Both the position numbers and the translations under genes were made by a program. The notes under the pieces were generated by a model. The model saw only the letters and a list, made by a program, of their open reading frames with translations. It was not told where the DNA came from and did no database searches. From an uncultured Chloroflexia bacterium (lineage in GTDB: Bacteria > Chloroflexota > Limnocylindria > Limnocylindrales > CSP1-4): DNA of 64,000 nucleotides. The DNA lies in the NCBI GenBank assembly GCA_963712745.1, contig CAVQJC010000005.1, positions 288,001 through 352,000 of the forward strand, written 5' to 3'. This document shows positions 7,866-60,786 of this stretch, piece after piece (the stretch's first letter is position 1; each line of letters opens with the position of its first letter).

Positions 7866-7940
7866 GCCGACATAGCTCAGTGGTAGAGCAGCTGTTTCGT
7901 AAACAGCAGGTCCTCGGTTCAAATCCGAGTGTCGGCTCCA
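7866..7940 (+). tRNA. tRNA-Thr(CGT) with encoded CCA
   Basis: Acceptor stem GCCGACA/TGTCGGC, D arm GCTC-AGTGGTA-GAGC, anticodon arm GCTGT-TTCGTAA-ACAGC, T arm CTCGG-TTCAAAT-CCGAG. Confidence 0.97.
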
Positions 7941-7964
7941 CTCCCCACGCGTGAGACGGCCGCC

Positions 7965-8369
7965 TCAGCGTGACCACAGTCGCAGGTCGACGTGCGGTGC
8001 CATGAGCTCGAAGTCGCGGTCCGTGGTGAGCATGACCAGGTCGTGCCGGCGACAGAGCTGCGCAAGCAGCGCATCGATGGTGCCGACCGAGATGCCGTGA
8101 CGACGACAGACGTTCCGCAGCTCGGCCGCTTCCACATGGTCGGCTCGGTCGGGCACAAGGAGCGGGAGCGCAGCGAAGCGCTCGACGATGGCATCGCGTG
8201 CGTTCGGCCCATGGAACCCCTGTAGCAGCTCCTGTAGCACGAGCCCTGTCGTGAAGACGCCCTCTCCCGTTTCGAGTGCCTGGCGCAAGCGCTCGACAGC
8301 CGGTTCATCGGGCGTGGCGTCACGGCGCAGCGCGAGGGACCACACGCTGGTGTCGACGAAGAGGTCCAC
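7965..8369 (-). CDS. vapC: VapC PIN-domain toxin
   Basis: FVDTSVW, LQELLQG, DALLAQL, LTTDRDF acidic PIN motifs. Confidence 0.92.
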   Translation of the reverse strand: MDLFVDTSVWSLALRRDATPDEPAVERLRQALETGEGVFTTGLVLQELLQGFHGPNARDAIVERFAALPLLVPDRADHVEAAELRNVCRRHGISVGTIDALLAQLCRRHDLVMLTTDRDFELMAPHVDLRLWSR

Positions 8370-8567
8370 TCAGCGGGCGCGCTCAGCCTTGTAGTCGTAC
8401 CGCGGATCCCAGTCGAGGGCCGCGAACAGCTCGACGATGCGCCGCTGCTCATGGCGTGCGACGTACTCGCGCAGCGCACGCGTGACCGCCGCGGTCTTGG
8501 TGCGCTCGCCACTCACCTTCACAGCCTGCTCGAGGAGTCCAGGATCGATATCGAGGTTGGTCGGCAT
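8370..8567 (-). CDS. vapB: VapB antitoxin
   Basis: MPTNLDIDPGLLEQA...TKTAAVTRALREYV; abuts vapC; TGTGCG/CGCACA inverted repeat at 8567-8584 over the start. Confidence 0.88.
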   Translation of the reverse strand: MPTNLDIDPGLLEQAVKVSGERTKTAAVTRALREYVARHEQRRIVELFAALDWDPRYDYKAERAR

Positions 8568-8620
8568 GTGCGGATTGTCGCACAATGCTCTGCACAATGG
8601 CAGCGCCTCAGTCTGGGACA

Positions 8621-8640
8621 TCCTCGCGATCCGTCAACAG
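8621..8640 (+). repeat. Highly decayed att core
   Basis: TCCTCGCGA-TCCGTCA-ACAG matches the TCCTCGCGA-TTCGTAA-ACAG junction seen at 34387 and 58618. Confidence 0.55.
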
Positions 8641-8737
8641 GCCAGATCCCTCATCGAAATACTTGAGCCATCGGGCTGGATCGCCGGTGGCCCGCCTGGC
8701 AGCAGGCCACCGGCTGATCCCAGGGGAGCCCCCTTAT

Positions 8738-10258
8738 CTAGTCGACCGTGACTGCTGCCTGGTCTCCTCCGTCCGTGGCCAACGCGTCCGGGGTGACCTC
8801 GAACGCCAGACGGAAGGCTGGCAGTCGCTCGCCAGGGTGATCGGCTTCGTACGTGAGCTGCGGCGTCCGGAAGTTCTGCACGCCGCCGATGTCCTCACCC
8901 TTGTAGATGCCCGGATAGAGGTCGACGAAGTGCCATCCGGCAGCACCCGTCAGGGGCATGTAGATGGTCACATCGCCCTGGCTGTTGAAGCCACAGGAGT
9001 ACCCGAGGAAGGCGTTGTCGTACACGAGGTTGTAGATGTTCGCGGTCTCCGTCCAGCCAACACCCTTGAGCACGATCTCGGCCATCTCGCCGAAGGGCCC
9101 GCGGACGACCTCCGACGAGACCAGCGACGGGGTGATGGTGACGGAGGCCTCGGCTACCTGGCCGTCATCGGTCGCGGCGATGAGTCGATGCGTGCCGCCA
9201 AGATCGTCAGGGATGGCCCAGGCGAACTCGATCGTCCCGTCGTCTCCCGCGGTCACCGCAGCGACCTCATCGGAGACTTCGTCCCAGCCGCTGCCGGAGA
9301 TGCGGTTGCCCACCACGGACGTCCAGGCCAACGAGACCTCCTGCCCAGGCTCGAAGCCATGCCCGGAGATCATCATCGGCGAGCCGACGGGCCCACTTGC
9401 GACATTCGACCAGAGCGCGGGGCCCTCGCCGTCGGGCGGAGCGGCCACCGTCTCGATCGGAAGGGACTGGCTGGCTGCTGGAGGCGGCATGACCGCGTCG
9501 CCAGACGTGATCTCGAAGTCGAAGGTGTAGTCGAGCCGGTCGGGCCGAGGCGACTGCTGGCCGTTGAGATAGGGCACAGTGAACGCACCGTGGATGATGC
9601 GGATGCGGTGGGGGCCGGCGGCGCCCGTCGCAGGGATAGTGGCCTCGGCCACCCCATCGGAGGTGACCGACGTGAGCACGCCCGTGTACTGGTTGTCGTA
9701 GGTCAGCTGCCAGCTGTTCTCGAGGTAGCCCCAGCCGATGCCTTCCATGCGCACCGTGATGGGCGTGCCCACGGGCCCGGATGCGGGCGAGACGGTGAGC
9801 GTGGGCTCCAGGCGGAAGCCGGCCTTGTTGAGCAGCTGCCCATCGGACTCGACGGTCACGTCATGGGTGAACCCGTAGTCCACGGGGGCCTCGAACACGG
9901 CCTCGAACGAGCCGTCTTCGGCCACGGTCGCACCGCTCATCGGCGTCTTGGTCGGGGTGAACTCGCGGCCCACGAACTCCTCGTTGGCGGCGCCCTCCAG
10001 CAGCCACGAACCATCGACGGAGTTCCAGACGACCTCCACGTCGGTGCCGGGTTCGAACCCATCGCCGGTGATGTTGACCTCGGTGCCGGCGACACCTTTC
10101 CACGGCGTCAGCTCGACGCTGCCGACGTACTCGACGACCTGGGCGTCCTGCTGCGCCAGGACCGGTGCGGCGACCAGGATGGCCAGGATGACCGTCGCGG
10201 CGGCGCGACGTAGGCGCCGACCGGATGGCTGACGTGAAACGACGGGTGTGTCCCTCAT
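8738..10258 (-). CDS. Exported protein with repeated beta-sandwich (Ig-like) modules, unknown function
   Basis: Signal peptide ending VLA-QQD; internal repeats G.GFEPG..V...W and GIGWG/GVGWT...YDN. Confidence 0.8.
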   Translation of the reverse strand: MRDTPVVSRQPSGRRLRRAAATVILAILVAAPVLAQQDAQVVEYVGSVELTPWKGVAGTEVNITGDGFEPGTDVEVVWNSVDGSWLLEGAANEEFVGREFTPTKTPMSGATVAEDGSFEAVFEAPVDYGFTHDVTVESDGQLLNKAGFRLEPTLTVSPASGPVGTPITVRMEGIGWGYLENSWQLTYDNQYTGVLTSVTSDGVAEATIPATGAAGPHRIRIIHGAFTVPYLNGQQSPRPDRLDYTFDFEITSGDAVMPPPAASQSLPIETVAAPPDGEGPALWSNVASGPVGSPMMISGHGFEPGQEVSLAWTSVVGNRISGSGWDEVSDEVAAVTAGDDGTIEFAWAIPDDLGGTHRLIAATDDGQVAEASVTITPSLVSSEVVRGPFGEMAEIVLKGVGWTETANIYNLVYDNAFLGYSCGFNSQGDVTIYMPLTGAAGWHFVDLYPGIYKGEDIGGVQNFRTPQLTYEADHPGERLPAFRLAFEVTPDALATDGGDQAAVTVD

Positions 10259-10334
10259 GGCTCCGCCTCGCTCCTGCTTTGCGTCGTGGCGAGCGGATGG
10301 AGCGCCCTGGCTCGGGCGCTCCGTCCGGCTCGAT

Positions 10335-10889
10335 CTAGGCCTCTTCTTCCTCGATGACGGGCCGGACCTCCTCGGTGATGATCAACCTCGCGGGTGACAC
10401 CCCGAATTGCTCGTAGGTCCCGGAGCGCCCGTCCATCGACGTGGCGCTGACCGTGTACCCGAGCTCGCCCGTTGGGTAGTCCTCCGGGATATCCCAGCCA
10501 TACGTCCAGAAGAAGTCCGCCGGTGTGTCTCGCGGATGCGGTCCGTAGCGCATGTCGAGCACCTGGTCGGGCAGCACCACCTGGACAGACTCGAGCATGG
10601 TGTCGTCCATCGGCTGTCCAGTCAGCGGGTCGAAGATCTTGACGCGCCAGACGATCTCCTCGTTTCGCGCGAAGCGGTTGCTCTGGACGCACGACTTGGA
10701 GACGCGCTCCTCGTCAGGAATGTTGGCGGGGCCCCAGACGGTGTCGGCGTCGATGAACAGCCAGTCGCCTGCTGCCTCTTCCTGGGCGGCTACCGGTACC
10801 GCACCCAGCGCGAGCATCGCACCGAGCACGGCCACCAGGAACCCGAGACTCCGCCTTGTCCGGTTCGTCCGGACGGGTCGGGAATCCAT
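10335..10889 (-). CDS. Exported hypothetical protein
   Basis: Signal peptide ending VAA-QEE, GC3-rich coding, GGGAAAGC RBS. Confidence 0.78.
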   Translation of the reverse strand: MDSRPVRTNRTRRSLGFLVAVLGAMLALGAVPVAAQEEAAGDWLFIDADTVWGPANIPDEERVSKSCVQSNRFARNEEIVWRVKIFDPLTGQPMDDTMLESVQVVLPDQVLDMRYGPHPRDTPADFFWTYGWDIPEDYPTGELGYTVSATSMDGRSGTYEQFGVSPARLIITEEVRPVIEEEEA

Positions 10890-11607
10890 GGCTTTCCCCT
10901 TTCCCTCGCCTTGAGCGAGCTACCCTGGTTGCGGGCCCGACCCGGCGCCGGGCACTTCCGCGCTGACTTCGATCCGGAGCGCCTTGATCGCTCCGGCGAG
11001 ATGAACGAACCCTGAGCAGGGTGAGCACGGTCACGCTGATGAGCACGACCCAGACGAAGACGACGGCGGCGCCGATAGCGAGGGGCATCACATCGGCCAG
11101 CGGCCGCAGTTGCGGGTCCACGATTCCGCCTCGTGGGACTTCTTCGGGGATGACCACGGTCTCGGCCGGGAAGACGACGTCATCCTCCACCTGCGACGAG
11201 GCCAGCGAGTCATTGCCGCTGTACGAGGCGGTCACCTTGTAGGTGTCCTCGCGAGGCACGATGGCCACGCGCGCGATCCCGGCGTTGTCCGTGGGCGCTC
11301 GGCCGATGGTCACCGTACGTCCACCGAAGACGTCCACCACACGCCGAATGCTCACGCGTTCGCCGACCACGGCAGAGCCGTCCTGTGCCAGCAGGCGAGC
11401 CGCCAGATAGTGGGGGATGCCCGTCATCGACGACGCCTCGAACGCGATGCTGAGCGACGTGGCCTCCTTCGCGGGGGGCGACTCTGGCGCATCCTCCTGG
11501 GCACCGGTGACATGGCCCACGAGCGCGACGCAGACGATGGCGAGCGCCAGCGCCGGCAGACCCTGATGCACGCGCCGAGCGACGAGTGAAGACGTCGGCC
11601 TTGCCAT
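10714..11607 (-). CDS. Exported protein with Ig-like domain and C-terminal membrane anchor; true 3' end probably near 10890
   Basis: Signal peptide, PTDNAGIARV..YKVTASYSG, C-terminal TM helix; as read, it overlaps the next gene by 176 bp, suggesting an indel. Confidence 0.65.
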   Translation of the reverse strand: MARPTSSLVARRVHQGLPALALAIVCVALVGHVTGAQEDAPESPPAKEATSLSIAFEASSMTGIPHYLAARLLAQDGSAVVGERVSIRRVVDVFGGRTVTIGRAPTDNAGIARVAIVPREDTYKVTASYSGNDSLASSQVEDDVVFPAETVVIPEEVPRGGIVDPQLRPLADVMPLAIGAAVVFVWVVLISVTVLTLLRVRSSRRSDQGAPDRSQRGSARRRVGPATRVARSRRGKGESHGFPTRPDEPDKAESRVPGGRARCDARAGCGTGSRPGRGSRRLAVHRRRHRLGPRQHS

Positions 11608-13019
11608 CACGCGGGGCGCTCCGTGGGCGCGGCCTGCGTCGTCTGCGCCGCCTGAGTCGCCTCGCGCGCACGCCGTTCCGCTTGTTCCCGCTCGATCTCG
11701 GTCGATCTCGAAGACCGACAGGACCGGGAAGACGCGGAAGAGGAGCATCACGATGAGGGGGATCCGGCGGCAGCGCCGATGACCACGAGCAGCTCGACCA
11801 GGCTGGGTGTATAGGACCCGGTGCCGCCACCGATCAGAGGCTGGGTCTGGGGCGGAACGGTGATGAGATAGCGCTTGACGAACATCGACACGATGACCAG
11901 CGTCGAGGCCACTGAGATCCCCACCGGGGTCCGCGTCCTCGGGATCGCGATGAGCAACACCGGCAGTACCAGCCCAAGTAGCACGAAGCCCCAGAAGAAG
12001 GGAGCGAACTCGTCGAGAACGAGGGCGAAGAGCACGCTCGCGTCAGCCGTCTCGCTGACGTAGCCCTCGGTGGTGACCTCGGTGAAGGTGGCGTACCCAT
12101 AGGCCACGGCGAGCGCGACGAGGATGTAGCCGAGGTTGCGGATGACACGGTCGTCGATCCAGCGACCAAGCCCGTACGCCATGCGATAGGACACGGCCGC
12201 GAGGATCACGACCGCGACGCCGGAGTAGATGGCGCCGATGACGAAGTACGGCCCAAAGATCGTGCTGTGCCAGCCGGGCCGGCTGGTGAGCGAGAACGCA
12301 TAGGAGAGGACCGTGTGGACGATGATCGCCAGCGGCACGATGAGGATGGCTACGATGGTCAACGCCCGTTCGAGGCTGAGGCGCTGCCGGTCGGTGCCAT
12401 TCCAGCCGAAGGACAGCCACCCGTAGAGCCGCCGCCGCCATCCACGGATGCCAGGGCGATCGCGCAGCATGCCCATGTCGGCGACAAGCGGCAACCCGAA
12501 GAGGACGAGTGTGGCCAGCAGATACGTGGAGATGGCCACCATGTCCCACACGATGGGACTGTTGATCTGCGGCCGGACCACGACCTCCCAGAGGCGCTCT
12601 GGCCGACCGACGTGGATGATCGGGAAGAGTGCGCCCATCAGCAGCGTCGCGAGAGCCGTGGCCTCGGCAATGCGCGAGACGCCTCCGCGCCACGGCACGC
12701 CGGTGAAGCGCAGGATGGCGGAAACGAGGGCGCCGCCGTAGCTGAAGCCGATGAACGTCACGAGCGTCGCGGTGTAGACACCCCAGAAGACCTGGTCGTT
12801 GAGGCCGGTCGTGCCGATGCCGTTGACGATCTGGTACCCGTAGGCCGCGACGCCGGTGAGTGCCAGCAAGATCAGCACCGACAGGTGCACCTTGAAGCCG
12901 ATACCCGCGCGGAGGGCGGGACGCATGGCAGCCTCGAAGAGCTCGTCGTCCGCGGGCTGCTCATCGACGCTCGCCGCTTCGGTCGGCCGGACGGTACCGG
13001 GGACGGGGTCTGCCATCAT
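11607..13019 (-). CDS. nrfD: NrfD/PsrC-family membrane quinol-interacting subunit; two compensating indels near 11760 and 11700
   Basis: VFWGVY, SRIAEA, HVGRPERLW, SPIVWDM, RPGWHSTIFGPYFVIGAIYSG; tail LLFRVFPVLSVFEI lies in a shifted frame; in-frame TGA overlaps the next ATG at 11607. Confidence 0.85.
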
Positions 13020-13873
13020 CAGTAGTCCAGGTCCTGCCCGTGGCCAGCCACGTAGTAGACGCGCGGTTCCGTGCCGAGGTGCTCTTTCAGCCGATAGACG
13101 TCGTGCTCGCGCAGGTACTGCGAGAGTCCGACGGTCTCGCGGCCGTTGGTCGCGACATCGGTCACGAGGTCACCGATGTAGACCGCTTCCATGCCGCACT
13201 TGCTGACACAGGCAGGCAGCTCCCCTTCCCTCGCGAGATGGGCGCAGTTGTCGCACTTGCCGACCGTCCCCTGCACCTGCGGGATCTGCAGTTCAGGCCC
13301 GTCATGTCGTGCCTCCGCGGGGACGTCAACCGGCTCATCCCAGTTGAAGGTCCGGACGCCATAGGGACACGCCGCCATGCACATGCGACAGCCGATGCAG
13401 ACGCTCTGGTCGATGGCGATCGGCCCATCCGCGGTGCGGTACGTGGCGGTGACCGGGCAGACCTGCACGCAGGGCGGCCGCTCGCACATCTGGCACATCA
13501 CCGGCAGGAAGTAGTCACCGCCGGACGCATCGGTCAGGCGATAGACCCGGATCCACTCCTGGTGGGCCGGCAGGAAGTGCTCGGTCTGGCAGGCGGTCGT
13601 GCATTCAGCGCAGCCGTCGCAGCGACGCAGATCGATGATGAAGACCCACTGGTGTTCTGCGCCTGGTCCGGTAGCCGGCAGATCACTGGCCCTGACGCGC
13701 TCGAGAAGGCCGAGCATGGTGGCCGCCTGACCGCCGGCGACGAGTGCGGCACCAACGGCCACGAGCTTCAGGAAGGTTCGCCGCTCCATGCCACTGGCGC
13801 CGTTGGGCCGGGGCGGAGGGGCAGTCAGCGGGACTTCACTCTGGACATTCGGAGGCGTCGTGTCGGTGTCCAT
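13019..13873 (-). CDS. Tat-exported 4Fe-4S dicluster protein (NrfC/DmsB family)
   Basis: RRTFLK twin-arginine signal; CDGCAECTTAC, CQMCERPPCVQVCP, CIGCRMCMAACPY, KCDNC...PACVSKC. Confidence 0.9.
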   Translation of the reverse strand: MDTDTTPPNVQSEVPLTAPPPRPNGASGMERRTFLKLVAVGAALVAGGQAATMLGLLERVRASDLPATGPGAEHQWVFIIDLRRCDGCAECTTACQTEHFLPAHQEWIRVYRLTDASGGDYFLPVMCQMCERPPCVQVCPVTATYRTADGPIAIDQSVCIGCRMCMAACPYGVRTFNWDEPVDVPAEARHDGPELQIPQVQGTVGKCDNCAHLAREGELPACVSKCGMEAVYIGDLVTDVATNGRETVGLSQYLREHDVYRLKEHLGTEPRVYYVAGHGQDLDY

Positions 13874-14061
13874 GACGATCGTCCGATGCTCGCTGCATCG
13901 ATGGGTCGCGCCAACCGTGTAAACCACGATGAGCAACAGCGAGAAGCCGAACCACCGGCTGCGGAACCCCGCAGCTTGGTGTTCGGTGGACCGCACGCAG
14001 AACGCGGGTTTTGCCGATACGGCGAGCCCACCAGCGGTGTAGGCTCCCGCGGGAGAGCCTC

Positions 14062-14733
14062 ATGAAAAGCCCACACGAGCCGATCAGCGTCCTGCTCGCC
14101 GATGATCACGCCCTTGTGCGCGAGGGGACGCGACAAATGCTCGAACGGCACGCCGAGATCACCGTCGTGGGCGAGGCGGTGGACGGCGAGACGGCTATCG
14201 AGATGGTCAGGGATCTCCGACCCGACGTGCTGGTGCTCGACATGAGCATGCCCGTCGCCAATGGGGTGGAGGTCACCACGGTCGTGCGCTCCGCTCCGGA
14301 CCCTCCCCAGGTCCTGATCCTGAGCGCATATGACGACGGCGACTACGCCTCGGCGGCGCTGCGGGCCGGAGCCTCGGGATATCTGCTCAAGACCGCCGGT
14401 GGTGAAGACCTGTACGCGGCCATCCTGGCCGTGGCGCGAGGCGAAGTCGTGCTCCACCCCACGATCGCGGCGCGGGTGCTCGAATCACACCCCGGCCATG
14501 AGCACGACCACGTCATGACCCTCTCCGAGCGCGAGCTGGAAGTCCTGAGCCACGCCTCACGGGGGCTCAGGACCGCGGACATCGCCGATGAGCTTTCGGT
14601 GAGCTCACGAACGGTCGAGAGTCACTTCACGAGCATCTTCAACAAGCTCGGCGTGGCCAACCGAACGGCAGCAGTCCTGCATGCCGCATCGCAGGGCTGG
14701 ATCGCGACCGATCGTGCCGATCGTGACGGGTGA
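14062..14733 (+). CDS. NarL/LuxR-family response regulator
   Basis: LADDHALVREG, VLDMSMP, GYLLK, LSERELEVL...TVESH HTH. Confidence 0.92.
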   Translation: MKSPHEPISVLLADDHALVREGTRQMLERHAEITVVGEAVDGETAIEMVRDLRPDVLVLDMSMPVANGVEVTTVVRSAPDPPQVLILSAYDDGDYASAALRAGASGYLLKTAGGEDLYAAILAVARGEVVLHPTIAARVLESHPGHEHDHVMTLSERELEVLSHASRGLRTADIADELSVSSRTVESHFTSIFNKLGVANRTAAVLHAASQGWIATDRADRDG

Positions 14734-14782
14734 ACGCGTAGGGCCGCAGCTGGAGGGGACGGGCGAGCGCGAGGCGCCGCGT

Positions 14783-16201
14783 ATGACCGCGACACGCGCT
14801 CAACTGAGATCGTGGCTACCTCCCATCGAGGACCGCCGCTTCTGGCTCGTGCAGGTCCTGGTGGTGCTGGTCGCGGTGCTGCACACAGTGGTGGAGTACG
14901 GAGAGGCCCTGGACGCCCACAGCCCGATCTACCTGCTGCCCACGACGCTCTTCCTCATCCCGGTCCTCTACGCAGCGGTGACCTTCGGGCGCCGTGGAGC
15001 CATCCTCACGGCCGTCTGGGCTGCAGTCCTGGTGCTGCCCAATATCTCCGTCCTGCATGATCCCGTGGAGGCCGTGGGCGAGCTCACGCAGGTCGCATGG
15101 ATCACGGTGGTCGCCATGTTCGTCGGTGGAAGGGTGGAGCGCGAGCGCCGCGCCCGACACGTGGCCGAGTTCAGAGAGGAACGTCGACGAGATTCGGAGG
15201 AGCGCTACCGGGCGATCGTCAACAACGTCGGCGAGCCCATCGTGATCCTCGACGCCGATCAGAACGTCATCGAGGCCAACGACGCGGCCACGGCGCTGTT
15301 CGGGCAGGGTGACCTGACCATCCGGGGCGGCCGACTGCATGGCGAAGCCGGTGAGGCCATGCAAGCGCTCCTGGGCGCCGCCGGGGATGAGCCTCCGGCG
15401 TCGCGCATCCAGCTTGGTCAGCCGCAGCGCTGGTACGAGCCGGTCGCCTACGCAAGCACGGACGCCAGGGGTGCTTCGACCACGCAGATCCTGCTCGTTG
15501 ACGTGACCGACAGCACCGAGCGCGAGCAGGGCCTCGAGAGTATCGCGCGCCGCACCATCGCGACGCGCGAGGAAGAGCAGCGGCGCATCTCGCGCGAGCT
15601 CCACGACGGACCCCTCCAGCTGCTCATGACGCTGTGGCGAAACCTCGACTCGATGACGCTCGAGGCAGAGGACCCGCTTCGCGGAGACCTGGTGCGCGCA
15701 CGCGGAACGACCGAAGACGTGGCCGACCAGCTGCGACGCTTCAGCCGCGATCTCCGACCCTCGATCCTGGACGACCTGGGCATCGCAGCAGCGCTGCGGT
15801 CCGAGGCCGAGCGGATGGCCGCCGAGTCGTCGCTCGACGTCCGGGTCGAGATCATCGGCAAACCGCGTCGCTTGGGCTCCGATCCCGAAATCGCACTGCT
15901 GCGGATCGCCCAGGAGGCGCTCCGCAATGTCGTCCGGCATTCGGGAGCCTCGAAGGCCACGGTGACCCTCCATTTCGGCCAATCAGACGTGTACATGAAT
16001 GTCGCGGACGACGGAGTCGGCCTCGAGTCCATGCCGACACCATCGGAGTTGCTACGCGGCAGCCACCTCGGCCTCATCGGGATGCAGGAGCGCGCGCGGA
16101 TGGTGGGCGGCTCCGTCCGGTTCGCTCAAGCTGCCCTCGGCGGCCTGGAGGTCGTCGTCGAGCTCCGCGACCAGGGTCGAACAGCAATCCACCACGCCTA
16201 G
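14783..16201 (+). CDS. Membrane PAS sensor histidine kinase (HisKA_3)
   Basis: TM helices, PAS-like region, EEQRRISRELHDG, QEALRNVVRHS, DDGVG, GLIGMQER. Confidence 0.9.
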   Translation: MTATRAQLRSWLPPIEDRRFWLVQVLVVLVAVLHTVVEYGEALDAHSPIYLLPTTLFLIPVLYAAVTFGRRGAILTAVWAAVLVLPNISVLHDPVEAVGELTQVAWITVVAMFVGGRVERERRARHVAEFREERRRDSEERYRAIVNNVGEPIVILDADQNVIEANDAATALFGQGDLTIRGGRLHGEAGEAMQALLGAAGDEPPASRIQLGQPQRWYEPVAYASTDARGASTTQILLVDVTDSTEREQGLESIARRTIATREEEQRRISRELHDGPLQLLMTLWRNLDSMTLEAEDPLRGDLVRARGTTEDVADQLRRFSRDLRPSILDDLGIAAALRSEAERMAAESSLDVRVEIIGKPRRLGSDPEIALLRIAQEALRNVVRHSGASKATVTLHFGQSDVYMNVADDGVGLESMPTPSELLRGSHLGLIGMQERARMVGGSVRFAQAALGGLEVVVELRDQGRTAIHHA

Positions 16202-16424
16202 TGTCTCGTGCCGCTATTGTCTAGCGGCATAGGGCTGGGTCCGCCACGGTCGGGGCATGGCTCAAGCACCTGCCCCACCACTGTCCGTCCCCGAGGCCGA
16301 CAAGGCCGTCCTCGAGGCCGTCATCCGGGCACCCACGAGCGAGCAGCGTCTCGTGACCTGCGCCCACATCGTGCTGCGTTCGGCCGAGGGCATCGCGATG
16401 GAGCACGTCGCGCGCGAGCTGGGC
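16199..16424 (+). mobile_element. IS630-family remnant (left end and transposase N-terminus only)
   Basis: ATG 16257 gives MAQAPAPPLSVPEADKAVLEAVIRAPTSEQRLVTCAHIVLRSAEGIAMEHVARELG; begins at a CTAG/TA site. Confidence 0.6.
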
Positions 16425-16488: not shown

Positions 16489-16539
16489 GTGCGGATCGGC
16501 GCACAACGCTGCACGATGGCCACGCCTCAATCCGGGGCG

Positions 16540-48827: not shown

Positions 48828-48828
48828 C

Positions 48829-51383: not shown

Positions 51384-51399
51384 GGGATGGCCAAGCACC

Positions 51400-52419: not shown

Positions 52420-52548
52420 CGCAGAGATCCACGAGGAGGTGGCGATGGCCCAACGTACTAGACGCTGATGGCCTGCACATAAGCGTACGGCTATCCGGGA
52501 TAGGTGACCGCACAACAGGCGGTCACGGAGAAGGAGGAAAGAAAAGGG

Positions 52549-53625: not shown

Positions 53626-53657
53626 CCATCAACCAGGCAGACGTGTGGGGTGAGACG

Positions 53658-54500
53658 GTGACATCAGGGACGAACGGGCGCGGGCAAGCTGGACAACGTG
53701 GGACGTCCATCGACATCGATGGCGCCACGATGGTCTTCAATGCAGACGCCGCCCCGTTCCAGGCCCTCACCGAGATCACACTCAGCGTCAAGCCTGGTGA
53801 GTTCGTTAGCGTGGTGGGGCCGAGCGGCTGCGGCAAGAGCACTCTGATGCTCCTGACCGCCGGGCTGCTTCGGCCTACCACGGGCGAGATCCGTGTCGCA
53901 GACAAGCGACTGGAATCACCCCTGACCGATGTCGGGATCGTCTTCCAGGACGATCTGCTGCTCGAATTCCGCACGGCCGAGAACAACATCCTTCTCCAGG
54001 GCCAGGTCCGGAAGCTCGACATGGACAGGATCCGCGCGCGCACGTCACAGCTCATGGGTCAGCTCGGTGTGGCGCAGGCAGCCGATCGGTATCCGAAGCA
54101 GCTCTCCGGCGGAATGCGCCAACGCGTCGCGATCGCTCGTGCGTTGGTGCATGATCCCTCCCTCCTGCTCATGGACGAACCGTTTGGCGCACTCGATGCG
54201 CTGACACGATTGCAGGTCCGCCATGACCTCGAACAGTTGTGGATGCGTGAACGGCCGACCGTCCTGTTCATCACCCACAGCGTGGAGGAGGCAGTCGGAC
54301 TGTCGGATCGGGTAGTCGTCTTCTCACCTTCTCCAGGTCGCATCGTGGAAGAGGTCATCATCGACCTGCCTCGCCCGCGGCCATTGGCGCTCGGTGAGAC
54401 GAAGGAACTCGCCGACCGTGCCGACGGCATCTATCGGACCTTCGAGGAGATGGGGGTTCTGTCCGAGGAAGATCTGCCCGGCGAAACCAGGTCCCTTTAG
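53658..54500 (+). CDS. ABC ATP-binding protein, SsuB/TauB family; start uncertain
   Basis: GPSGCGKST, LSGGMRQR, MDEPFGALD, ITHSVEEAV. Confidence 0.9.
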   Translation: MTSGTNGRGQAGQRGTSIDIDGATMVFNADAAPFQALTEITLSVKPGEFVSVVGPSGCGKSTLMLLTAGLLRPTTGEIRVADKRLESPLTDVGIVFQDDLLLEFRTAENNILLQGQVRKLDMDRIRARTSQLMGQLGVAQAADRYPKQLSGGMRQRVAIARALVHDPSLLLMDEPFGALDALTRLQVRHDLEQLWMRERPTVLFITHSVEEAVGLSDRVVVFSPSPGRIVEEVIIDLPRPRPLALGETKELADRADGIYRTFEEMGVLSEEDLPGETRSL

Positions 54501-54527
54501 GGCTGACGCCCGTCCGCCGCCGCCGAC

Positions 54528-54950
54528 GTGAGGAGCCTCATCCCCGGCAGCAGCGCCACCACCCTCGCCTTCGGTGCGGTGTACTTCATCTGGGGCTCCA
54601 CGTACCTGGCCATCCGATTCGGGCTCGACAGCTTCCCACCCTTCATCCTCAACGGACTGCGCTATTCCCTGGCAGGGCTTGCGATGTTCCTCGTGCTCAT
54701 GGCGCTGGGGACACCGCTCCCGACCCGACGACAGTGGTGGAACATCGCCCGCGTCGCGGCACTCATGATGGTCGGCGGGGCAGGCCTCGTGACTGTCGCA
54801 CAGGATGTCGGTGTCGGCTCCGGACTCGCTGCCACAGCGGTGGCGATGATCCCGGTGTGGGCGGCCCTCGTCTCTGGCTTCCTGGGGATCTGGCCCCGTC
54901 GCGTCGAGTGGGTGGGACTCGCCGTCGGATTGCTCGGAGTCGCCCTGCTT
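54528..54950 (+). pseudogene. EamA/YedA-type DMT transporter, 3'-truncated
   Basis: VYFIWGSTYLAIRF...; only the first EamA repeat precedes the IS256 junction. Confidence 0.8.
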
Positions 54951-55609
54951 GCCCTCCTTCGGTCCCTCGGGACGGACCGGCAGGTAGATGGCGTCGAGCA
55001 TGAGTGCGAGCAGTCGCACCTCGCCGAGGCTGCGGGCCCGAAAGGCCCGGTAGCGGTCGCGCAGCTCCCGGCAGATGGTCGAGACGGTCGTGCGGCTGAT
55101 GTGGCCGAGGCCGGCTTCGGCCGCGAGGGACTCGATGTCACGATCCGACAGGCCTCGGACGTAGGCCCCGATGACGAGGGCTTCGAGGGGCCGGGTGCGC
55201 ACGATGGCCTTGGTGTCGGGGATGGTGGCGCTCACGAAGCGGGTGAGGCTGTCGCGCACCTGGGGCATGGCCACGCTGATCTCGCCCTCGGCGGTCTGGA
55301 CCCGGCGGGGCCGGGTGCCGTTGCGGGAGCCGGTCGCCTCGGGTGCCCGTTCGTAGCGGACCCGACCGAGGAAGGCGGTCACCTCCTCCTCGACCGCCCG
55401 CTGCAGCACCAGCTGCGCTCCCAGGCGACCGAGCTCACCGACGCGATCGGCATCGTCGAGCCCTCCGAGGAGCACCTCCTCGATGGCTGCCTCGATCTTG
55501 GCACTCGGGGCTATCCTTCGTTCCACGGCGTAGTCCTCCTTGGCGAACTTCCAGGTCCGCTTCGGAGCCTATGCCGTCTCTACTTTTCCAGCGATCTCAG
55601 GACGCCACC
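54951..55609 (-). mobile_element. Truncated IS256-family element (transposase from GTG 55526, about 190 codons)
   Basis: RNGTRPRRVQTAEGEI, AYVRGLSDRDI, ISRTTVS, LMLDAIYL; candidate terminal IR GGTGGCGTCCTGAGATCGCTGGAAAA at 55609. Confidence 0.85.
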
Positions 55610-55883
55610 GGAAGGCACTGCCGTGGTACAGCTTTTCGCAGGATCTTCCCAGGGGGACTGAGGCTACCGTCGGGACTCCACTAGGCTTCCTCGCGTTGTC
55701 GTGGATGGACATCGGACGCAACCTCTTGAGCCCGATCAGCAGATCAGATGTGGCTCGGGCGAGATCACGAGGGTCGGATCGAACGCCTGACGGTCTTCGT
55801 TGGTTCCCCGGCGCACTCTGAGCGGGAGGTTCTTGACGACTGAAGCCCCGGCCCTCTCCGACGCACACGGCACGTACCTCTTG

Positions 55884-55928
55884 TTCGTAAACAGCAGGTC
55901 CTCGGTTCAAATCCGAGTGTCGGCTCCA
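55884..55928 (+). repeat. att copy 7, identical
   Basis: Matches 7896-7940; TGACCCCT at 55986 and 55998. Confidence 0.95.
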
Positions 55929-56340
55929 CTCCCCACGCGTGAAACGGGCCGTTTCGGGCTGTCCCTGGCCGGAGTCAGCAGAGTCTGACCCCTGATGTGA
56001 CCCCTGAGAACACCCGCCAATGTGACCAACTCAGGTAATCACTACCAAGGGTCCCGATCCTGAATTGGCTAGCGGCGTGCGGACCACCTTGACGAGGATC
56101 TCATCGATGCTCGCGACCAGTTCCGTGACCGACAGGAGGCTGCCGTGCTGAGCGGCCTGGCGGCGGAATCTTCGGTTGATCTCAACACCAAGCCGCTAGC
56201 TGGCGACAGGAGAAACCAGGGCGGCAACCAAGCGTGAACTCAAGCTGGTTCAGCGGTCACACGCTTCGTCACACGGCCGGTCGTCAAGGTACGACCCATC
56301 GAGCGCATCCCCGACGCCCGACCGACCGGAGACAGATCGA

Positions 56341-56553
56341 ATGACCGTCACACAGCGAACCGCAGAGCAGCCGGCCCAGCCGGCCCTCACCAACCCACCC
56401 TTGACGCGGCTGCTCGCCGCCACCCGCCGACGCGCGGCGAGCGTTCGTGCTGCCTACGCACAGATCATCATCCGCGGACAGCTTGGGCCAGTCGTGGGCC
56501 AGCGTGATCACCGTCGACCCGAGCCTCCGTTCTCCGGCCCTCGCTTCTACTGA
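56341..56553 (+). CDS. Small hypothetical protein
   Basis: 70-aa ORF with GGAG upstream, directly before the BTAD gene. Confidence 0.4.
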   Translation: MTVTQRTAEQPAQPALTNPPLTRLLAATRRRAASVRAAYAQIIIRGQLGPVVGQRDHRRPEPPFSGPRFY

Positions 56554-56594
56554 GCCTTGTGTCAGGGTCCGATCACGGTCAGGATGTCCAGCCT

Positions 56595-58415
56595 ATGAGT
56601 CTCCAGATCGAACTGCTCGGCGCGCCACGTGTGGCCGTGAGCGGCAACGAGTCGGTACCGCCAAGAGGTCGCAAGGCGTGGGCGCTGCTGGCCTACCTGT
56701 TGTTGACCTCGCGGCCGCAGCCACGGGAGCGGCTCGCCACGCTGCTGTTCGATGAGGCCGCAGATCCGCTGGGTGCGTTGCGCTGGAACCTGGCGCAACT
56801 TCGACGCACGCTCGGCGATCGCGTCGAAGTCGGTGGCGAGCCCCTGACCATCCGCCTGCCGCAGGGCAGCGTCATCGACACCGAAGTCCTCGCCCATGGC
56901 GACTGGACCACGGCAGTCGAGGTCACGGGCCTGGGCCACGAGCTGCTCGAGGGCATCGATCTGCCCGGCAACGCCGCATTCGAGACATGGCTGCTGGCCG
57001 AGCGCCGCCGTTTCGCCGGCATCAGTGCATCGATCCTGCGCGAGGCGGCGACCGCACGACTTGCGGCAGGTGAGGTGATGCCTGCGGTGGATCTCGCCTC
57101 TCGCCTCGTGGCCATCGAAGATTTCGATGAAGAGGCCCACGCGCTGCTGATCCGCGCCTATGCGGCCTCAGGCGATGTGGAGCGGGCGCGGCAGCAGTCC
57201 GTCAGATCGGCGGCGTATCTGCGAGAAGAGCTCGGCGTCGAGCCCTCCGCGACCCTGGGTCGGGCACTCAGCGGCGCGCTGGCGGCACTGGAGCCAGACA
57301 CCCGAACTGTGCCAAGCGAACGGGGCATCGAGGCACTCATCGAGGCTGGACGTGCAGCCTTCAACGCCGGCGCCACAGATGCCGGCATCCAGACGCTTGC
57401 GCGGGCTACCGATGAGGCGAGGGCCCTCTCGTCGACGCAGCTCCAGGCCCGCGCCCAACTGGCTCACGGTGTGGCCCTGGTGCACACGGGTCGGGGCCGT
57501 GATGGCGAGGGTGCGACGATCTTGCACGCGGCGCTGAGCTCTGCCGTTGCCGCAGGAGATGCGCGTATCGCCAGCGAGGCGTCGCGCGAGCTCGGGTACA
57601 TCGAGTTCCTGCGAGGTCGCTACGACCGTGCCCAGACATGGCTGGAGCGGGCCATCGAGTCAGCACCCGATGAGATCGAGCGCGCTTCGGCGCTTGCCAT
57701 CCTCGGGGCCACCGCATGTGACCGCGGCCGGACGGGCACGGCCATCGAAGCGCTCAGCGAAGCCGCCGCGGTCGGGGCACGAGTACAGAAGCCACGCATC
57801 GAGGCCTGGGCGCGTGCGCTCCTGGGCCGTGCACACCGGCTGCGCGGCGAGCTCGACGAGGCCGCCTCAGAGCTAGACCGTGCCGTCGAGATCTGCCGTG
57901 CCGTGGGCTGGATGTCGTTCCTGGGCATGCCGCAGTCGATGCGCGCGGACGTGCACCTGCTGCGTGGCGAGGTGGGACCAGCATCGGACGACTACGAAGC
58001 GGCCTTCGCACTCGGTTGCCAGATCGGCGATCCTTGCTGGGAGGGACTCGGTGCACGGGGCATCGGCCTGGTCCACTTCGAACGAGGGCGCATCGATGAG
58101 GGCTTCGAGTGGCTCAGCGATGCCGCTGTGCGCTGCGTGCGCACCACCGATGCCTATCTCTGGATCGAGGCGTTCTGTCTCGACACGCTCTGTGCTCGCG
58201 GCCTGGAACACGGCCGCCGCGAAGTCGCCGACTGGGCCGGACGACTCGAGACCCTCGCGGCGCGCACCGATATGCGCGAGATGCTCGTGCGCAGCCAGAT
58301 GCATCGAGCCGCCCTTGGTGTCGTTGATGCTGGGGCGGCGGCACGACTCTTCGCTCGCGATGTCGACAATCCTTCGCTCCTGAGAGAGCTATCCGGGACG
58401 CCAGCGCCCGCGTAG
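56595..58415 (+). CDS. BTAD/SARP-type transcriptional regulator with TPR repeats
   Basis: IELLGAPRV, KAWALLAYL, RERLATLL, FETWLLAER, EELGVEPS, helical TPR C-terminus; no NB-ARC P-loop seen. Confidence 0.85.
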   Translation: MSLQIELLGAPRVAVSGNESVPPRGRKAWALLAYLLLTSRPQPRERLATLLFDEAADPLGALRWNLAQLRRTLGDRVEVGGEPLTIRLPQGSVIDTEVLAHGDWTTAVEVTGLGHELLEGIDLPGNAAFETWLLAERRRFAGISASILREAATARLAAGEVMPAVDLASRLVAIEDFDEEAHALLIRAYAASGDVERARQQSVRSAAYLREELGVEPSATLGRALSGALAALEPDTRTVPSERGIEALIEAGRAAFNAGATDAGIQTLARATDEARALSSTQLQARAQLAHGVALVHTGRGRDGEGATILHAALSSAVAAGDARIASEASRELGYIEFLRGRYDRAQTWLERAIESAPDEIERASALAILGATACDRGRTGTAIEALSEAAAVGARVQKPRIEAWARALLGRAHRLRGELDEAASELDRAVEICRAVGWMSFLGMPQSMRADVHLLRGEVGPASDDYEAAFALGCQIGDPCWEGLGARGIGLVHFERGRIDEGFEWLSDAAVRCVRTTDAYLWIEAFCLDTLCARGLEHGRREVADWAGRLETLAARTDMREMLVRSQMHRAALGVVDAGAAARLFARDVDNPSLLRELSGTPAPA

Positions 58416-58461
58416 GTGTTGTCCGCCGGTGGCAGTCGATGCCCCGGCCTTCCGACGACGA

Positions 58462-58481
58462 TGACCCCTGAGCTGACCCCT
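58462..58481 (+). repeat. Upstream arm-type direct repeat pair TGACCCCT
   Basis: TGACCCCT at 58462 and 58474, 165 bp before att copy 8. Confidence 0.75.
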
Positions 58482-58626
58482 GTCAGAAACAGTGGCCGGA
58501 GAGCCGCAGGGCTCTGGCGGGGGAGCACAAAGCCGAGACTGGCTCCCGCTGGTGCGGGCTGACGTGTGGGGTTCGACGTGCTTCGATATCGCAGTCGGAC
58601 GGGGTGCGGGCCCTCGGTCCTCGCGA

Positions 58627-58671
58627 TTCGTAAACAGCAGGTCCTCGGTTCAAGTCCGAGTGTCGGCTCCA
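58627..58671 (+). repeat. att copy 8 (T loop TTCAAGT)
   Basis: 44/45 match; TGACCCCT at 58730 and 58742. Confidence 0.95.
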
Positions 58672-58824
58672 CTTCCCACCGCGTGAATCGGCACGTTCCG
58701 GGCTGTCCATGGCCAGAAACAGCAGGGCCTGACCCCTGATGTGACCCCTGCCCGACCCGTCGATCCGGGTGCGATCTCGACGGGTCGGGAGCCGACGCTG
58801 CCCGCCAAGATCTCGTCTTCCGCC

Positions 58825-58853
58825 TTGACCGCGATATGTTTCACATCTATGGT
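58825..58853 (+). promoter_or_regulatory. Sigma70-type promoter for a near-leaderless transcript
   Basis: TTGACC-17-TATGGT, 10 nt before ATG 58864. Confidence 0.55.
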
Positions 58854-58863
58854 TGTTAGTGAC

Positions 58864-59598
58864 ATGGTTGTGCAACTGGATGACGGGTCGGCGATCGTCG
58901 GCGTAGGCCAAGCCGCGCACATGCTCAGCCTGCGCCCGAGGTCGGTGCTTCGTCTCATCAACGACGGCGAGTTGCCCGCCCAAAAGGAGTTCGGGCGCTG
59001 GCGCATCCTGCGTGCCGATGTCGAGATCCGTCGTGAGCTCGGCGCCCACGATGGCCGGCGATATGCGCCAGCCGCAGCTTGGGGTCTCATCTTCCTCGGG
59101 AGCGGAGGGCAGGCCCCGTGGCTCGATCGCATCTCCCGATGGCGCATCCGGAAGCAGCTCGCCTCACGACCATGGCCGGGACTGCGGCACGCCCTGGCTG
59201 ATCGTGCCTCCCTGAGCCGCTATGCAGCACACCCCAATTCGGTCGCGCGTCTGCGTGACGAGCCGGACCTGATGCATTCCGGCCTCGGGGCGGCCGAGGC
59301 GTCCGGCGTCGGCGTGATCGGCGCCGGCGACCGGTTCGCGGCATACGTGCCCGACGAGCACCTGCCCGACATCATCGGCCGGAATCATCTGCGCCAAGAC
59401 CCGGCCGGGCTGGTAGCCCTCCGAACGGTCCTGCCCGAAGCCCTTCCGAAGCCACTGCCGCCGGTGGCGCCGCAGGTGGCTATCGCGCTCGACCTGCTCG
59501 AAGACCACGAGCCACGGGCCAGGCAGGTCGGACGCGAACTCCTGGCCATGCTCGAGTCGGAGTACCGGGCGGGTGTCGATGGCCCTGCCCGTGGATGA
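58864..59598 (+). CDS. Excisionase-like HTH protein with AbiEi-like C-terminus (putative type IV antitoxin)
   Basis: VGQAAHMLSL..RSVLRLINDGELPAQK.FGRWRI; C-terminal VAPQVAIALDLLEDHEPRARQVG. Confidence 0.65.
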   Translation: MVVQLDDGSAIVGVGQAAHMLSLRPRSVLRLINDGELPAQKEFGRWRILRADVEIRRELGAHDGRRYAPAAAWGLIFLGSGGQAPWLDRISRWRIRKQLASRPWPGLRHALADRASLSRYAAHPNSVARLRDEPDLMHSGLGAAEASGVGVIGAGDRFAAYVPDEHLPDIIGRNHLRQDPAGLVALRTVLPEALPKPLPPVAPQVAIALDLLEDHEPRARQVGRELLAMLESEYRAGVDGPARG

Positions 59599-60318
59599 CA
59601 CGCCGATGCTGGAGATCGAGTCATGGAGCGATGCCGAGGCGCAGCTCTGGGTGACGCTTCGCGAGGTCTGCGAGCTCTTCAGCGGGCTCCCATGGGTCCT
59701 CGTCGGCGGCCTGATAGTGCGTCTCCTCGAGGCCGAGCACGGGCGCGAGACCCAATTCGCGACGATGGACGTCGACGCCATCATCGACGTTCGAGCGATG
59801 ACCTTGGGCAAGCGAGAGGCCGCCCAGCGGCTCCTCGACCATGGTTTCCAACCCGAACGGCCGGACGGCAAGACCGTCTACGGCTCACGCGGGCCGGCGA
59901 CATCGTCGATGTCCTCCCGCCCGATGGGCTCGGATCGAGAGCAGACATCGTGACGGTCCCACCAGCGTCCACTTTCCGGACGGTCGGGGGGTCGAGAGCG
60001 CTACGGGGTCGACGGCGACTCGCGGTGTCGGTCGACACCAAGCAGTTCGAGGTCCCGGTCCCAGACCTCGCCGGGGCGATCGTCATCAAGGCGCGGGCCG
60101 CGACGAGCGCGACGACGAGCGCAACGAAACACGAGCGCGACCTTGCCCGACTGCTCACGCTCGTCGATCATCCGTACGAGATGCGCGACTCCATGTCCGG
60201 AAAGGAGCGCGGCTACGTGCGGCGGCATCACGCACTCTCCGACCCTTGTCACGCCGCGTGGTCACAAGTGGCGGACGCGGACCTTGGCTCACAGGGCCTC
60301 GCCGTCATCTGCGGCTGA
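59573..60318 (+). CDS. Putative nucleotidyltransferase toxin (AbiEii-like), frameshifted near 59881
   Basis: WVLVGGLIV...TMDVDAII, then in a shifted frame IVDVL...VPVPDLAGAIVIKARA...KHERDLARLL. Confidence 0.65.
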
Positions 60319-60465
60319 CTTCGACGTAGGCGGCCGATGATGGCGATCGACCCGGAGCAGCCACGCGTCAGCATCCGGGGTGGTGTTTGCGACGGATCGA
60401 TGGGAGTGTTTGCGGAAGCTTCACAGGTCTAGCCGCGACGAGTAGCACGCGGCGAAACCAGCCTT

Positions 60466-60510
60466 TTCGTCAACAGCAGGTCCTCGGTTCGGATCCGAGT
60501 GTCGGCTCCA
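60466..60510 (+). repeat. att copy 9 (loop TTCGTCA, T loop TTCGGAT)
   Basis: 42/45 match; single TGACCCCT at 60568. Confidence 0.92.
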
Positions 60511-60786
60511 CTCCCCGAGCATGAAGTGGCCCGTTTCGGGCTGCCTGCAAGCGGAAACGGCAGGGCCTGACCCCTGCGCGGCCAACCGCCAATCAGGCCG
60601 AGCCTATGAGTCGTGGCGGGCCTGGATCAACGAGTCGGGGCCGGTCTGGAGCGAGGTCGCAGGTGACATGCCTGTCCCCTGCCATTGACCGCGAAGCTGA
60701 CTGGTCTCGATCGAAGTCAGGGCGGTGCGGCACGCCGCGCCCCGGTCCCAGAGAGGCGGTCCTCCTACAGCAGGATCGTCGTCGGG

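Follow-up and report, generated by a model that had tools for sequence, protein, structure and literature searches.

An array of integrase-less modules at a tRNA-Thr(CGT) gene in an uncultured Limnocylindria bacterium

Limnocylindria is an abundant, uncultured lineage of Chloroflexota from soil and sediment. In Streptococcus thermophilus, cis-mobilizable elements (CIMEs) and tandem accretion at the attachment (att) sites that belong to integrative and conjugative elements (ICEs) are reportedly known from ICESt1 and ICESt3, through work said to be that of Pavlovic in 2004 and Bellanger in 2011. A CIME, as the term is used in the part of PMC5704250 that treats such modules, is an integrase-less module that is kept between att sites. 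In the sections of PMC3146451 on the ssrA locus of Dehalococcoides, many direct repeats of the 3' end of ssrA are described together with tandem islands, and 15 of these islands have no integration module and are read there as possible CIMEs that were moved by accretion. For the Prochlorococcus islands, the relevant portion of bioRxiv 10.1101/2020.12.28.424599 reports that integration into tRNA genes leaves partial tRNAs and integrase fragments behind and that newcomers push the older elements inward. In this report, we describe a stretch of 64,000 nucleotides (the window, G000:C5:288001-352000) from an uncultured bacterium of soil or sediment, in which an intact tRNA-Thr(CGT) gene is followed by a row of its own partial copies with integrase-less modules between them. 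The region is probably a tandem accretion array at the attB site within the tRNA gene, and the elements that formed it would be an integrative family with a tyrosine integrase.

The resemblance to the CIME and ICE cases, as set out in part in PMC5704250, lies in the attL- and attR-type flanks of the modules, in the lack of integration and transfer genes, and in the tandem arrangement at the target gene's 3' end; the locus fits the published model of integration, decay, and reintegration into the restored site. Unlike those cases, the array in the window has ten or more sites, and its modules are as short as 0.7-2.7 kb and may hold a single gene. A further difference is that the window genome, which belongs to the phylum Chloroflexota, has no functional partner element, and mobilization of its modules is a prediction. 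The sequence-only reading, an earlier interpretation of the letters of the window, held that tandem accretion usually involves a few large elements that carry their own integrase. The CIMEs of PMC5704250 and the 15 Dehalococcoides islands of PMC3146451, in the parts of these papers that describe them, indicate that this understates the literature.

Dehalococcoides is also a member of Chloroflexota, and its ssrA islands are the nearest published case, as far as PMC3146451 presents them. The two loci are alike in having repeats of the 3' end of a small-RNA gene downstream of that gene and in the position of the integration module which, where present, is next to attL on the reverse strand. The target in Dehalococcoides is tmRNA, the repeat is 20 bp, the recombinase is the serine recombinase DsiB, and the cargo is different. 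In the window, the repeat is about 60 bp and extends from the anticodon loop, and arm repeats accompany it. The array is not of the ssrA/DsiB type, as its target is tRNA-Thr(CGT) and its associated recombinase is a tyrosine integrase of PF00589 (no search by name was made for serine recombinase families).

The window genome (4.2 Mb in 20 contigs, 84.5% complete, 5% contamination) is metagenome-assembled in appearance. It was compared with 48 other genomes of the genus, for a set of 49; genomes, contigs, and loci are numbered with the letters G, C, and L, respectively. A total of 56 open reading frames (ORFs) of the window were scanned with Pfam, and 10 unexplained ORFs were scanned with PHROGs. 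Six integrases of the cognate family described below, one full-length and the rest truncated or fragmentary, were used as tblastn queries.

The tRNA-Thr Gene and Its Partial Copies

The only Rfam match in the window is the tRNA-Thr(CGT) gene. A 34-nt piece from the 3' part of this gene is repeated on the + strand, with 0-2 mismatches, at 16685, 21575, 32865, 34404, 39434, 55892, 58635, and 60474, which gives 9 matches with the gene included versus 0 expected from 100 shuffles. Using a profile built from the copies, a ninth and degenerate copy was identified at 35815-35869 (E 5.5e-8), together with an att fragment of 20 nt at 16551-16570. Alignment with the other copies located a further decayed copy at approximately 8620-8690, after vapB. 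There are 11 att-derived sites 3' of the gene: nine direct copies, of which eight are near-perfect, and two more that are decayed. The sequence-only reading had called the nine direct copies, and these are confirmed and extended by the decayed pair. The sites, and the P' arm repeats that follow some of them, are as follows.

7866-7940, + strand: intact tRNA-Thr(CGT) gene (ARAGORN, Rfam)
8620-8690, + strand: decayed att copy that closes the VapBC cassette (alignment)
16423-16570, + strand: remnant of a second vapB (5' part) and att fragment (16551-16570)
16677-16738, + strand: att copy 1, P' arm at approximately 16779-16800
21567-21626, + strand: att copy 2
32857-32917, + strand: att copy 3
34396-34456, + strand: att copy 4, P' arm at 34498-34519
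35815-35869, + strand: att copy 5, degenerate
39426-39486, + strand: att copy 6, P' arm at 39527-39548
55884-55944, + strand: att copy 7, P' arm at 55985-56006
58627-58687, + strand: att copy 8, P' arm at 58729-58750
60466-60576, + strand: att copy 9, half P' arm at 60567-60576

The start-to-start spacings of 8.78, 4.89, 11.29, 1.54, 1.42, 3.61, 16.46, 2.74, and 1.84 kb agree with the module sizes that had been proposed. In the eight clean copies, the identity with the tRNA begins at TTCGTAA, the 7-nt anticodon loop, and the preceding base is unlike that of the tRNA. All of the nine direct copies, as had been stated, and also the two decayed ones open at the anticodon loop, and they constitute tRNA-derived att sites with the loop as the left edge. 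The attL core extends from the anticodon loop to the 3' end of the tRNA gene (7896-7940) and for about 15 nt downstream. The shared repeat is longer than the 45 bp originally given, since about 17 nt beyond the CCA are common to the copies, and in six copies the approximately 100 bases 3' of the core are about 75% alike. The tRNA-derived direct repeats at the module boundaries, with the intact tRNA at one end, are the arrangement expected of a genomic island, and the modules have attL- and attR-type sites on their two sides as CIMEs do.

A short hairpin, supplied by the elements, is located just past the CCA (approximately 7950-7975 in the window) and at the same spot after every copy. It is perfect in some genomes (e.g., L048 and L053) and imperfect in the window, and it may be a terminator or processing signal of the restored tRNA.

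Arm Repeats and the Cognate Integrase

The P' arm consists of two direct TGACCCCTG repeats, 3 bases apart, that are found about 95 nt after the core. Pairs of this kind follow the cores at 16677, 34396, 39426, 55884, and 58627, and half a pair follows the core at 60466. On the opposite side, P-arm pairs of TGACCCCTG precede the cores at 21567 and 58627 by about 165 nt. With no more than 1 mismatch, CTGACCCCTG occurs 20 times in the window versus 7.0 expected, and 0 of 100 shuffles reached 20. Both the P and P' arm sets are retained, with no integrase, in modules 2 and 8 (modules are numbered by the att copy at their right end). The genus genomes G010, G001, G015, and G007, which have a single copy, contain unrelated sequence after the tRNA with no repeat of the TGACCCCTG type, and therefore the repeat-bearing flank in the window is element DNA rather than the native flank. 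The pairs stand at set distances, both in the window and in the autonomous elements described below, and are absent from empty sites, and on this basis the TGACCCCTG repeats are candidate arm-type binding sites for an integrase. Arm-site binding and the crossover position are predicted here from the general model of tyrosine integrases with arm-type sites.

Immediately after the P' arm of the SoFic cassette (module 5) there is an inverted repeat, CCGTCAATCTGGCATTGACTTTGACGG (window 34520-34570), which is found at the same place in L006, L009, L010, L011, and L020 and is conserved in six genomes. It looks like an operator preceding the Fic gene.

One genome per species was scanned for the pattern of a core, 50-80 nt, and a repeat pair. 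This yielded 25 loci, nearly all from metagenome-assembled genomes (MAGs) titled Chloroflexota, Limnocylindria, or Limnocylindrales; the arm pattern had no match in IMG/VR. Directly after the repeat pair, five of the 25 loci have the 3' end of a gene for a tyrosine integrase that reads toward the tRNA. These elements lie in genera other than that of the window genome, and their integrases are listed below.

L068 (element L093): full-length integrase of 386 aa (PF00589 and PF14659)
L049: integrase truncated at the N-terminus
L050 (element L094): integrase truncated at the N-terminus
L065: frameshifted integrase
L066: integrase remnant of 45 aa

The genomes of L068 and L050 have exactly two copies each, 16.8 and 15.7 kb apart, respectively, and it follows that an autonomous element spans the distance from the tRNA to one att copy. 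At the far ends of the autonomous elements, a TGACCCCTG pair precedes the core by about 120 nt, and a motif close to the core resembles the TCCTCGCGA motif of the window. Modules 2 and 8 of the window share this far-end layout. To judge from these features, the sites in the window are ordinary double-stranded att sites of a tRNA-Thr-specific element family of related Chloroflexota MAGs. No recognized replication module was found among the 10 ORFs of L093 that were scanned. L093 also encodes a second, XerC-like tyrosine recombinase (12585-13559) in addition to the att-proximal integrase, and there is a DNA methylase gene near the far end.

The IMG/VR contig L045 (13.9 kb) contains genes for a Prim-Pol/AAA_25 primase-helicase, an HTH_17 protein, and an integrase, together with an attP site and a portal gene, and it looks small and viral or satellite-like. 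Its attP consists of the tRNA-Thr(CGT) core from the anticodon loop through the 3' part, with GGCAACAG arm repeats instead of TGACCCCTG. Because the same core is used with other arm repeats, the position in tRNA-Thr is targeted by more than one integrase lineage.

No module of the window has an integrase gene next to its att site, in contrast to the full-length gene of L068/L093 and the damaged genes of L049, L050/L094, and L065. With stops read through, PF00589 was found at 4 places in the whole genome and at 0 on the stretch of the window. The tblastn queries returned nothing in the window at E<=1, and likewise nothing at 1e-4. Pfam detected no family of integrases, relaxases, or phage structural proteins among the 56 ORFs (no search aimed at relaxase families by name was made), and PHROGs gave one weak match to a family with no assigned function for the 10 unexplained ORFs. 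The sequence-only reading had noted that no module holds an intact integrase, relaxase, or phage gene, and these searches bear it out, with the proviso that relaxases were not searched separately. By the definition in the relevant part of PMC5704250, the modules are CIMEs: the attL and attR sites are kept, and integration and transfer genes are absent. Clear integrase remnants in each module had been named as the observation that would mark the array as ordinary decayed islands. None is present in the modules of the window at E<=1, but remnants do occur in the arrays of relatives (L066, G056, and G016), and for this reason decay contributes to such arrays. The fragments in G056, G016, and G006 are 57-81% identical to the cognate family.

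A search of the genome for tyrosine recombinases had been proposed, and the four PF00589 places do not include a full-length cognate integrase. The sole trace of that family is a C-terminal stub of 50 aa on contig C17, which has no att copy beside it and is fused into another frame. The integrase on contig C12 of the window genome was rejected as a candidate; it adjoins a different partial tRNA-like sequence. The best full-length matches in the genus are 52-55% identical to the cognate integrase. These were also set aside: the ten loci fetched around the best matches have no tRNA-Thr, and the arm motif is absent from them except for one stray occurrence. A frameshifted XerC-like gene beside an att copy in G014 was considered as a candidate cognate integrase and dropped. 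Neither the tRNA-Thr core nor a tRNA lies within approximately 1 kb of the intact homologues of this gene in G007, G003, and G054, and pieces of the gene gave no tblastn match in the window genome. At L037 (G024:C2, 7324-11636), a gene for a GpA-type large terminase ends about 250 nt before an att-like copy (3 mismatches), and a MarR-like gene and an unrelated tyrosine recombinase of 297 aa come after it, close to the end of the contig.

The array might instead be a set of fixed remnants of once autonomous islands, whose integrases have been deleted and from which nothing moves, with similar modules reflecting shared ancestry or ordinary recombination. The series of integrases in the relatives, from full-length through truncated and frameshifted genes to a stub of 45 aa, and the remnants in G056, G016, and G006 agree with this explanation. 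So do the degenerate att copies in the window, the lack of a detectable cognate integrase in the genome, the housekeeping-like operons of the large modules, and the statement, in the part of PMC5704250 on tandem elements, that the partners are generally decayed. On the other hand, nine or more modules have no integrase trace at E<=1, yet six of them keep a P' arm (one as half a pair), and modules 2 and 8 have their P and P' pairs arranged as in the autonomous elements. The comparison of the modules among genomes, presented below, also argues against fixed remnants, and we consider this explanation unlikely.

Modules Shared among Genomes

The contents of the modules are summarized below.

7965-8621, - strand: module 1a, a VapBC cassette of about 0.7 kb with VapC (PIN, 7965-8369) and VapB (8370-8621) (Pfam)
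8738-16201: module 1b, TIG/Ig-like proteins, NrfD, 4Fe-4S protein, LuxR response regulator, and PAS histidine kinase (Pfam)
16739-21566: module 2, with P arm repeats at 21398-21419
17420-19843, - strand: module 2 gene for an 807-aa protein with no family assigned
20050-21072, - strand: module 2 gene for a luciferase-like monooxygenase
21627-32856: module 3, phosphonate-type binding protein, SpoIIE phosphatase, solute-binding protein, anti-sigma kinase, STAS protein, two ABC ATPases, and FtsX permease
32918-34395: module 4, with a 190-aa ORF of no assigned family (33960-34532, - strand)
34610-35821, + strand: module 5, a SoFic-type Fic protein in a 1.4-kb cassette (Pfam Fic; PADLOC SoFic, E 9.8e-71)
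35870-39425, + strand: module 6, an ECF sigma factor (36010-36705) and proteins of 597 and 211 aa without a family
39487-55883: module 7, a sugar-acid/CoA-ester catabolic operon (15 kb) with an ABC transporter
55945-58626, + strand: module 8, one gene (56559-58415) for a BTAD/TPR (SARP-like) regulator, and a P arm at 58461-58482
58688-60465, + strand: module 9, an HTH_17/AbiEi-like protein (58741-59598) and small ORFs without a family

Among the 48 other genomes of the genus, at least two matches to the 34-nt piece were found in 19, one in 18, and none in 11. Identical module order in all relatives would have spoken for a static array. The order was compared and is not identical: the neighbors of a module, the number of copies, and their spacing differ from genome to genome.

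Modules have been exchanged between species. Module 8 is an integrase-less mini-element with both arm sets. Its identity is 94% with G013 and with G054, against 80% (G013) and 83% (G054) for the syntenic gene to the left of the tRNA. In a sliding comparison, the identity is 0.9-1.0 inside module 8 and falls to alignment noise just beyond the att copies. The SoFic cassette, whose Fic protein aligns with the PADLOC SoFic model over its entire length, is 94.7% identical in G014, versus 81% for the flanking gene, and it is found between att copies in G014, G021, G008, G022, and G006. A Fic gene of 30% identity occupies the SoFic position in G017. For fixed remnants of islands, identities of 94-95% across species against 80-83% for the flank gene would not be expected, nor would an abrupt end of the module 8 homology right outside the att copies or an order that is not constant between genomes.

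Other modules have homologues with various neighbors. After the right end of module 2 (93%), G022:C2 has an att copy and a VapBC cassette (80%) where the window has module 3, and this VapBC homologue is between two att copies. Homologues of module 4 are 83-85% identical in G006 and G056 and 82% identical in G021. In G014:C8, the homologue of module 9 (76-87%) adjoins an att copy and is preceded by a homologue of the window sequence at 60577-61142. Element-type sequence goes on to the right of att copy 9, and given this order in G014:C8, the array is probably one module longer, with a far site that has decayed. Module 3 is syntenic at 79-86% in G011:C3 and G014:C8. The operon of module 7 is 86-87% identical in G001, where no att was found beside it; it is flanked by att fragments in G024:C5, and in G056:C1 two att copies surround it, together with stubs of the cognate integrase. 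The claim that the region consists of discrete small cargo units therefore stands in part: module 8, the SoFic cassette, and the VapBC cassette recur between att copies with other neighbors, while modules 3 and 7 are ordinary operons.

Modules might also be exchanged with no integrase. In that case, the tRNA-derived repeats of 60-130 bp would serve as homology arms, and incoming DNA from relatives would swap or insert cassettes by homologous recombination. The cores differ little or not at all among the genomes of the genus, no integrase was found at a tRNA-Thr site in the genus, and the end of the module 8 homology at the repeats is predicted equally by this route and by site-specific recombination. 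Copies on other contigs and inverted copies in G016, G022, and G054 suggest rearrangement between repeats, as this route would have it. Conserved arm repeats outside the core of integrase-less modules are left unexplained by it, as is the origin of the first copies, and 60 bp is a short substrate for RecA-dependent exchange. Homologous recombination as the sole route is thus improbable. The available data do not distinguish between exchange across the repeats and the action of an integrase that a passing element provides in trans or in cis.

Copies of the att core were found on several contigs of G016 (L022, L038, and L040), on G022:C2 (L021), and in G054. The cores of G016 are in both orientations, and L021, L038, and L040 have no intact tRNA-Thr. 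These scattered and inverted cores suggest rearrangement between copies or secondary arrays.

An assembly artifact, in which the repeats caused the assembler to chain unrelated pieces, would be conceivable for a MAG-like genome of this completeness and contamination. Like arrays are, however, located inside contigs of 0.6-2.2 Mb in the independent genomes G021, G024, G008, and G054, and the same module-att-module junctions were found again in other genomes. The G+C content is about 0.63-0.71 along the window, with no sharp shift at the edges of the array and an even composition across it. An artifact of this kind is extremely unlikely.

Public sequencing runs were also consulted. For the 24 runs listed, Logan contigs only were available, covering no more than 0.44 of the sampled words, and the contigs of four runs over 21001-41000 were short and shallow. 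A loose contig end with the 5' half of the tRNA before 32857 and a backward joint from 35781 to 32857 were rejected as signs of mobility: the identical core accounts for both, in that a real tRNA or the cassette of a relative will match any copy. Since the repeated core explains the apparent joints, these runs say nothing on circles, deletions, or habitat.

Formation and Movement of the Array

According to the reading that we favor, accretion at attB in the tRNA-Thr(CGT) gene, the integrase would exchange strands in or beside the 7-nt anticodon loop, and the incoming element would carry its own copy of the 3' part of the tRNA. Because the element brings this part with it, integration would restore the gene and move the older elements outward. 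On the tRNA side of an autonomous element, the order is the core, the hairpin, the two direct TGACCCCTG repeats read as the P' arm, and the 3' end of the integrase gene; the far end has the second TGACCCCTG pair (the P arm) and the TCCTCGCGA motif, which abuts the core. Every module in the window has lost its integrase or never had one, and several are cassettes of one or two genes, namely VapBC, SoFic, the SARP-like regulator, and the AbiEi-like HTH protein. Each internal junction would then be an attP-like P-core-P' site, and an integrase from an incoming autonomous element could therefore excise, reshuffle, or co-mobilize the modules. The action of an integrase in trans is plausible since the arm repeats of the two element ends survive in modules 2 and 8, which appear to be the best candidates for it. 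The identities of module 8 and the SoFic cassette in excess of the flank, the end of the module 8 homology at the att sites, and the complete arm sets are the reasons to suppose that integrase-less units move as such; binding of the integrase to the repeats and present-day mobility of the modules are predicted.

Several observations weigh against this reading. The copies at 8620, 16551, and 35815 are degenerate, several sites in the window look unusable, and a recognizable P arm pair is missing from most of its modules. The large modules 3 and 7 look like ordinary operons that are chromosomal in appearance, and their homologues in G001, G011, and G014 have no att copy at E<0.01 in the adjoining sequence that was fetched. 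A full-length cognate integrase is absent from the assembled genome (84.5% complete), and a cognate integrase adjoining tRNA-Thr was found in 0 of the 49 genus genomes. Decay of the integrase is common, the gene being full length in 1 of the 25 loci, with remnants in G056, G016, G006, and L066. The XerC-like pseudogene of G014 is uninformative for the model, as the intact members of its family lie away from tRNA-Thr att sites. No physical sign of movement, such as a circle junction or an empty site, was demonstrated.

The sequence-only reading had proposed that the locus is a capture platform parallel to an integron. The two are alike in that small cargo units, with toxin-antitoxin or defense-type genes among them, are arrayed between recombination sites. 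Integrons have intI, attI, single-stranded attC hairpins, and a common promoter, whereas the sites in the window are double-stranded copies of the 3' part of a tRNA. No IntI-type recombinase is located beside the array (0 matches to PF00589 in the window and 0 by tblastn at E<=1), and there are no attC-type sites, every site being a direct copy of the tRNA-Thr 3' part from the anticodon loop. The strands of the cargo are mixed, with VapBC and the module 4 ORF on the - strand and the SoFic, sigma factor, SARP-like, and HTH genes on the + strand. Because the genes are on both strands, there can be no common promoter. The proposal is therefore not upheld: the array is not an integron, as it has neither a resident integrase nor attC sites, and its genes share no promoter or orientation.

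A platform that is an integron in function only, in which a host-encoded integrase acting in trans routinely inserts and excises small attP-like units, would account for the small cassettes of one or two genes of the toxin-antitoxin, defense, or regulator type, for the complete arm sets of module 8, and for the cassettes that are common to several species. The integrase required by it is neither beside the array nor full-length in the assembled genome, and none was found at the site in the 49 genus genomes. The genes on both strands speak against it, and so does the use of the same sites as the att of ordinary autonomous elements with their own integrase in other genera. We regard a dedicated platform as very unlikely. 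A variant of the accretion model, which is possible although doubtful, is that the small modules are non-autonomous mini-elements that consist of a cargo gene and a full set of arm sites and stand to the autonomous elements as miniature inverted-repeat transposable elements do to insertion sequences. They would be captured and traded between Limnocylindria species by an integrase that is rarely resident, and the tRNA-Thr locus would then be an integron-like store of defense, toxin-antitoxin, and regulator cassettes with no integrase of its own.

Two other kinds of elements are comparable in part. Integrative mobile elements exploiting Xer (IMEX) lack their own recombinase, are found in tandem at dif, and use the XerCD of the host. 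The array resembles these in that elements with no recombinase are piled up at one site and depend on a recombinase from outside, and it is unlike them in that its site belongs to a tRNA gene and its recombinase family is borne by elements in other genomes. Tycheposons, in the portion of bioRxiv 10.1101/2020.12.28.424599 that defines them, have their own integrase and replication modules (helicase/primase). The window has neither by Pfam, while L045, which shares the same core, does carry Prim-Pol/AAA_25 and an integrase.

The array is a large and tidy example, of the CIME type, of a known way in which genomes collect foreign genes. What is newly mapped is the element family, the first integrative one for Limnocylindria, with its core, predicted crossover region, candidate arm sites, integrase, and autonomous form; a literature search in full texts for "Limnocylindria" and "integrase" gave nothing related, as judged by title. 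The absence of an integrase from one genome is not evidence of a new mechanism, because a long integrase-less array may be an ordinary accretion site, and similar arrays should be read with this caution. Module 8, with one gene, complete att arms, and 94% identity in three species, is a minimal test substrate, and it is suited to the question of whether movement of integrase-less units can occur in trans or is confined to cis with a helper.

The remaining observations concern the cargo and the flanks of the array. Module 1b contains an NrfD/4Fe-4S pair and a LuxR-type two-component pair. To the right of these genes, a sequence of about 230 bp (window 16195-16425) is found with 78-93% identity in G005, G024, G059 (three places), and G022 (three places), and it is possibly a small mobile repeat. 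At its right end, module 7 has an EamA gene that is truncated by the remnant of an IS256-family transposase (54963-55421, - strand). A repeat of about 660 bp (window 54951-55610) overlaps the N-terminal remnant of this transposase and is multicopy in G022, G055, G049, G003, and G006 at 79-91% identity. Beyond the array, the sole family match of a 678-aa ORF (window 61879-63915, - strand) is the choice-of-anchor C domain, and its DNA recurs at three places in G014 as well as in G049, G006, and G056, with 77-81% identity.

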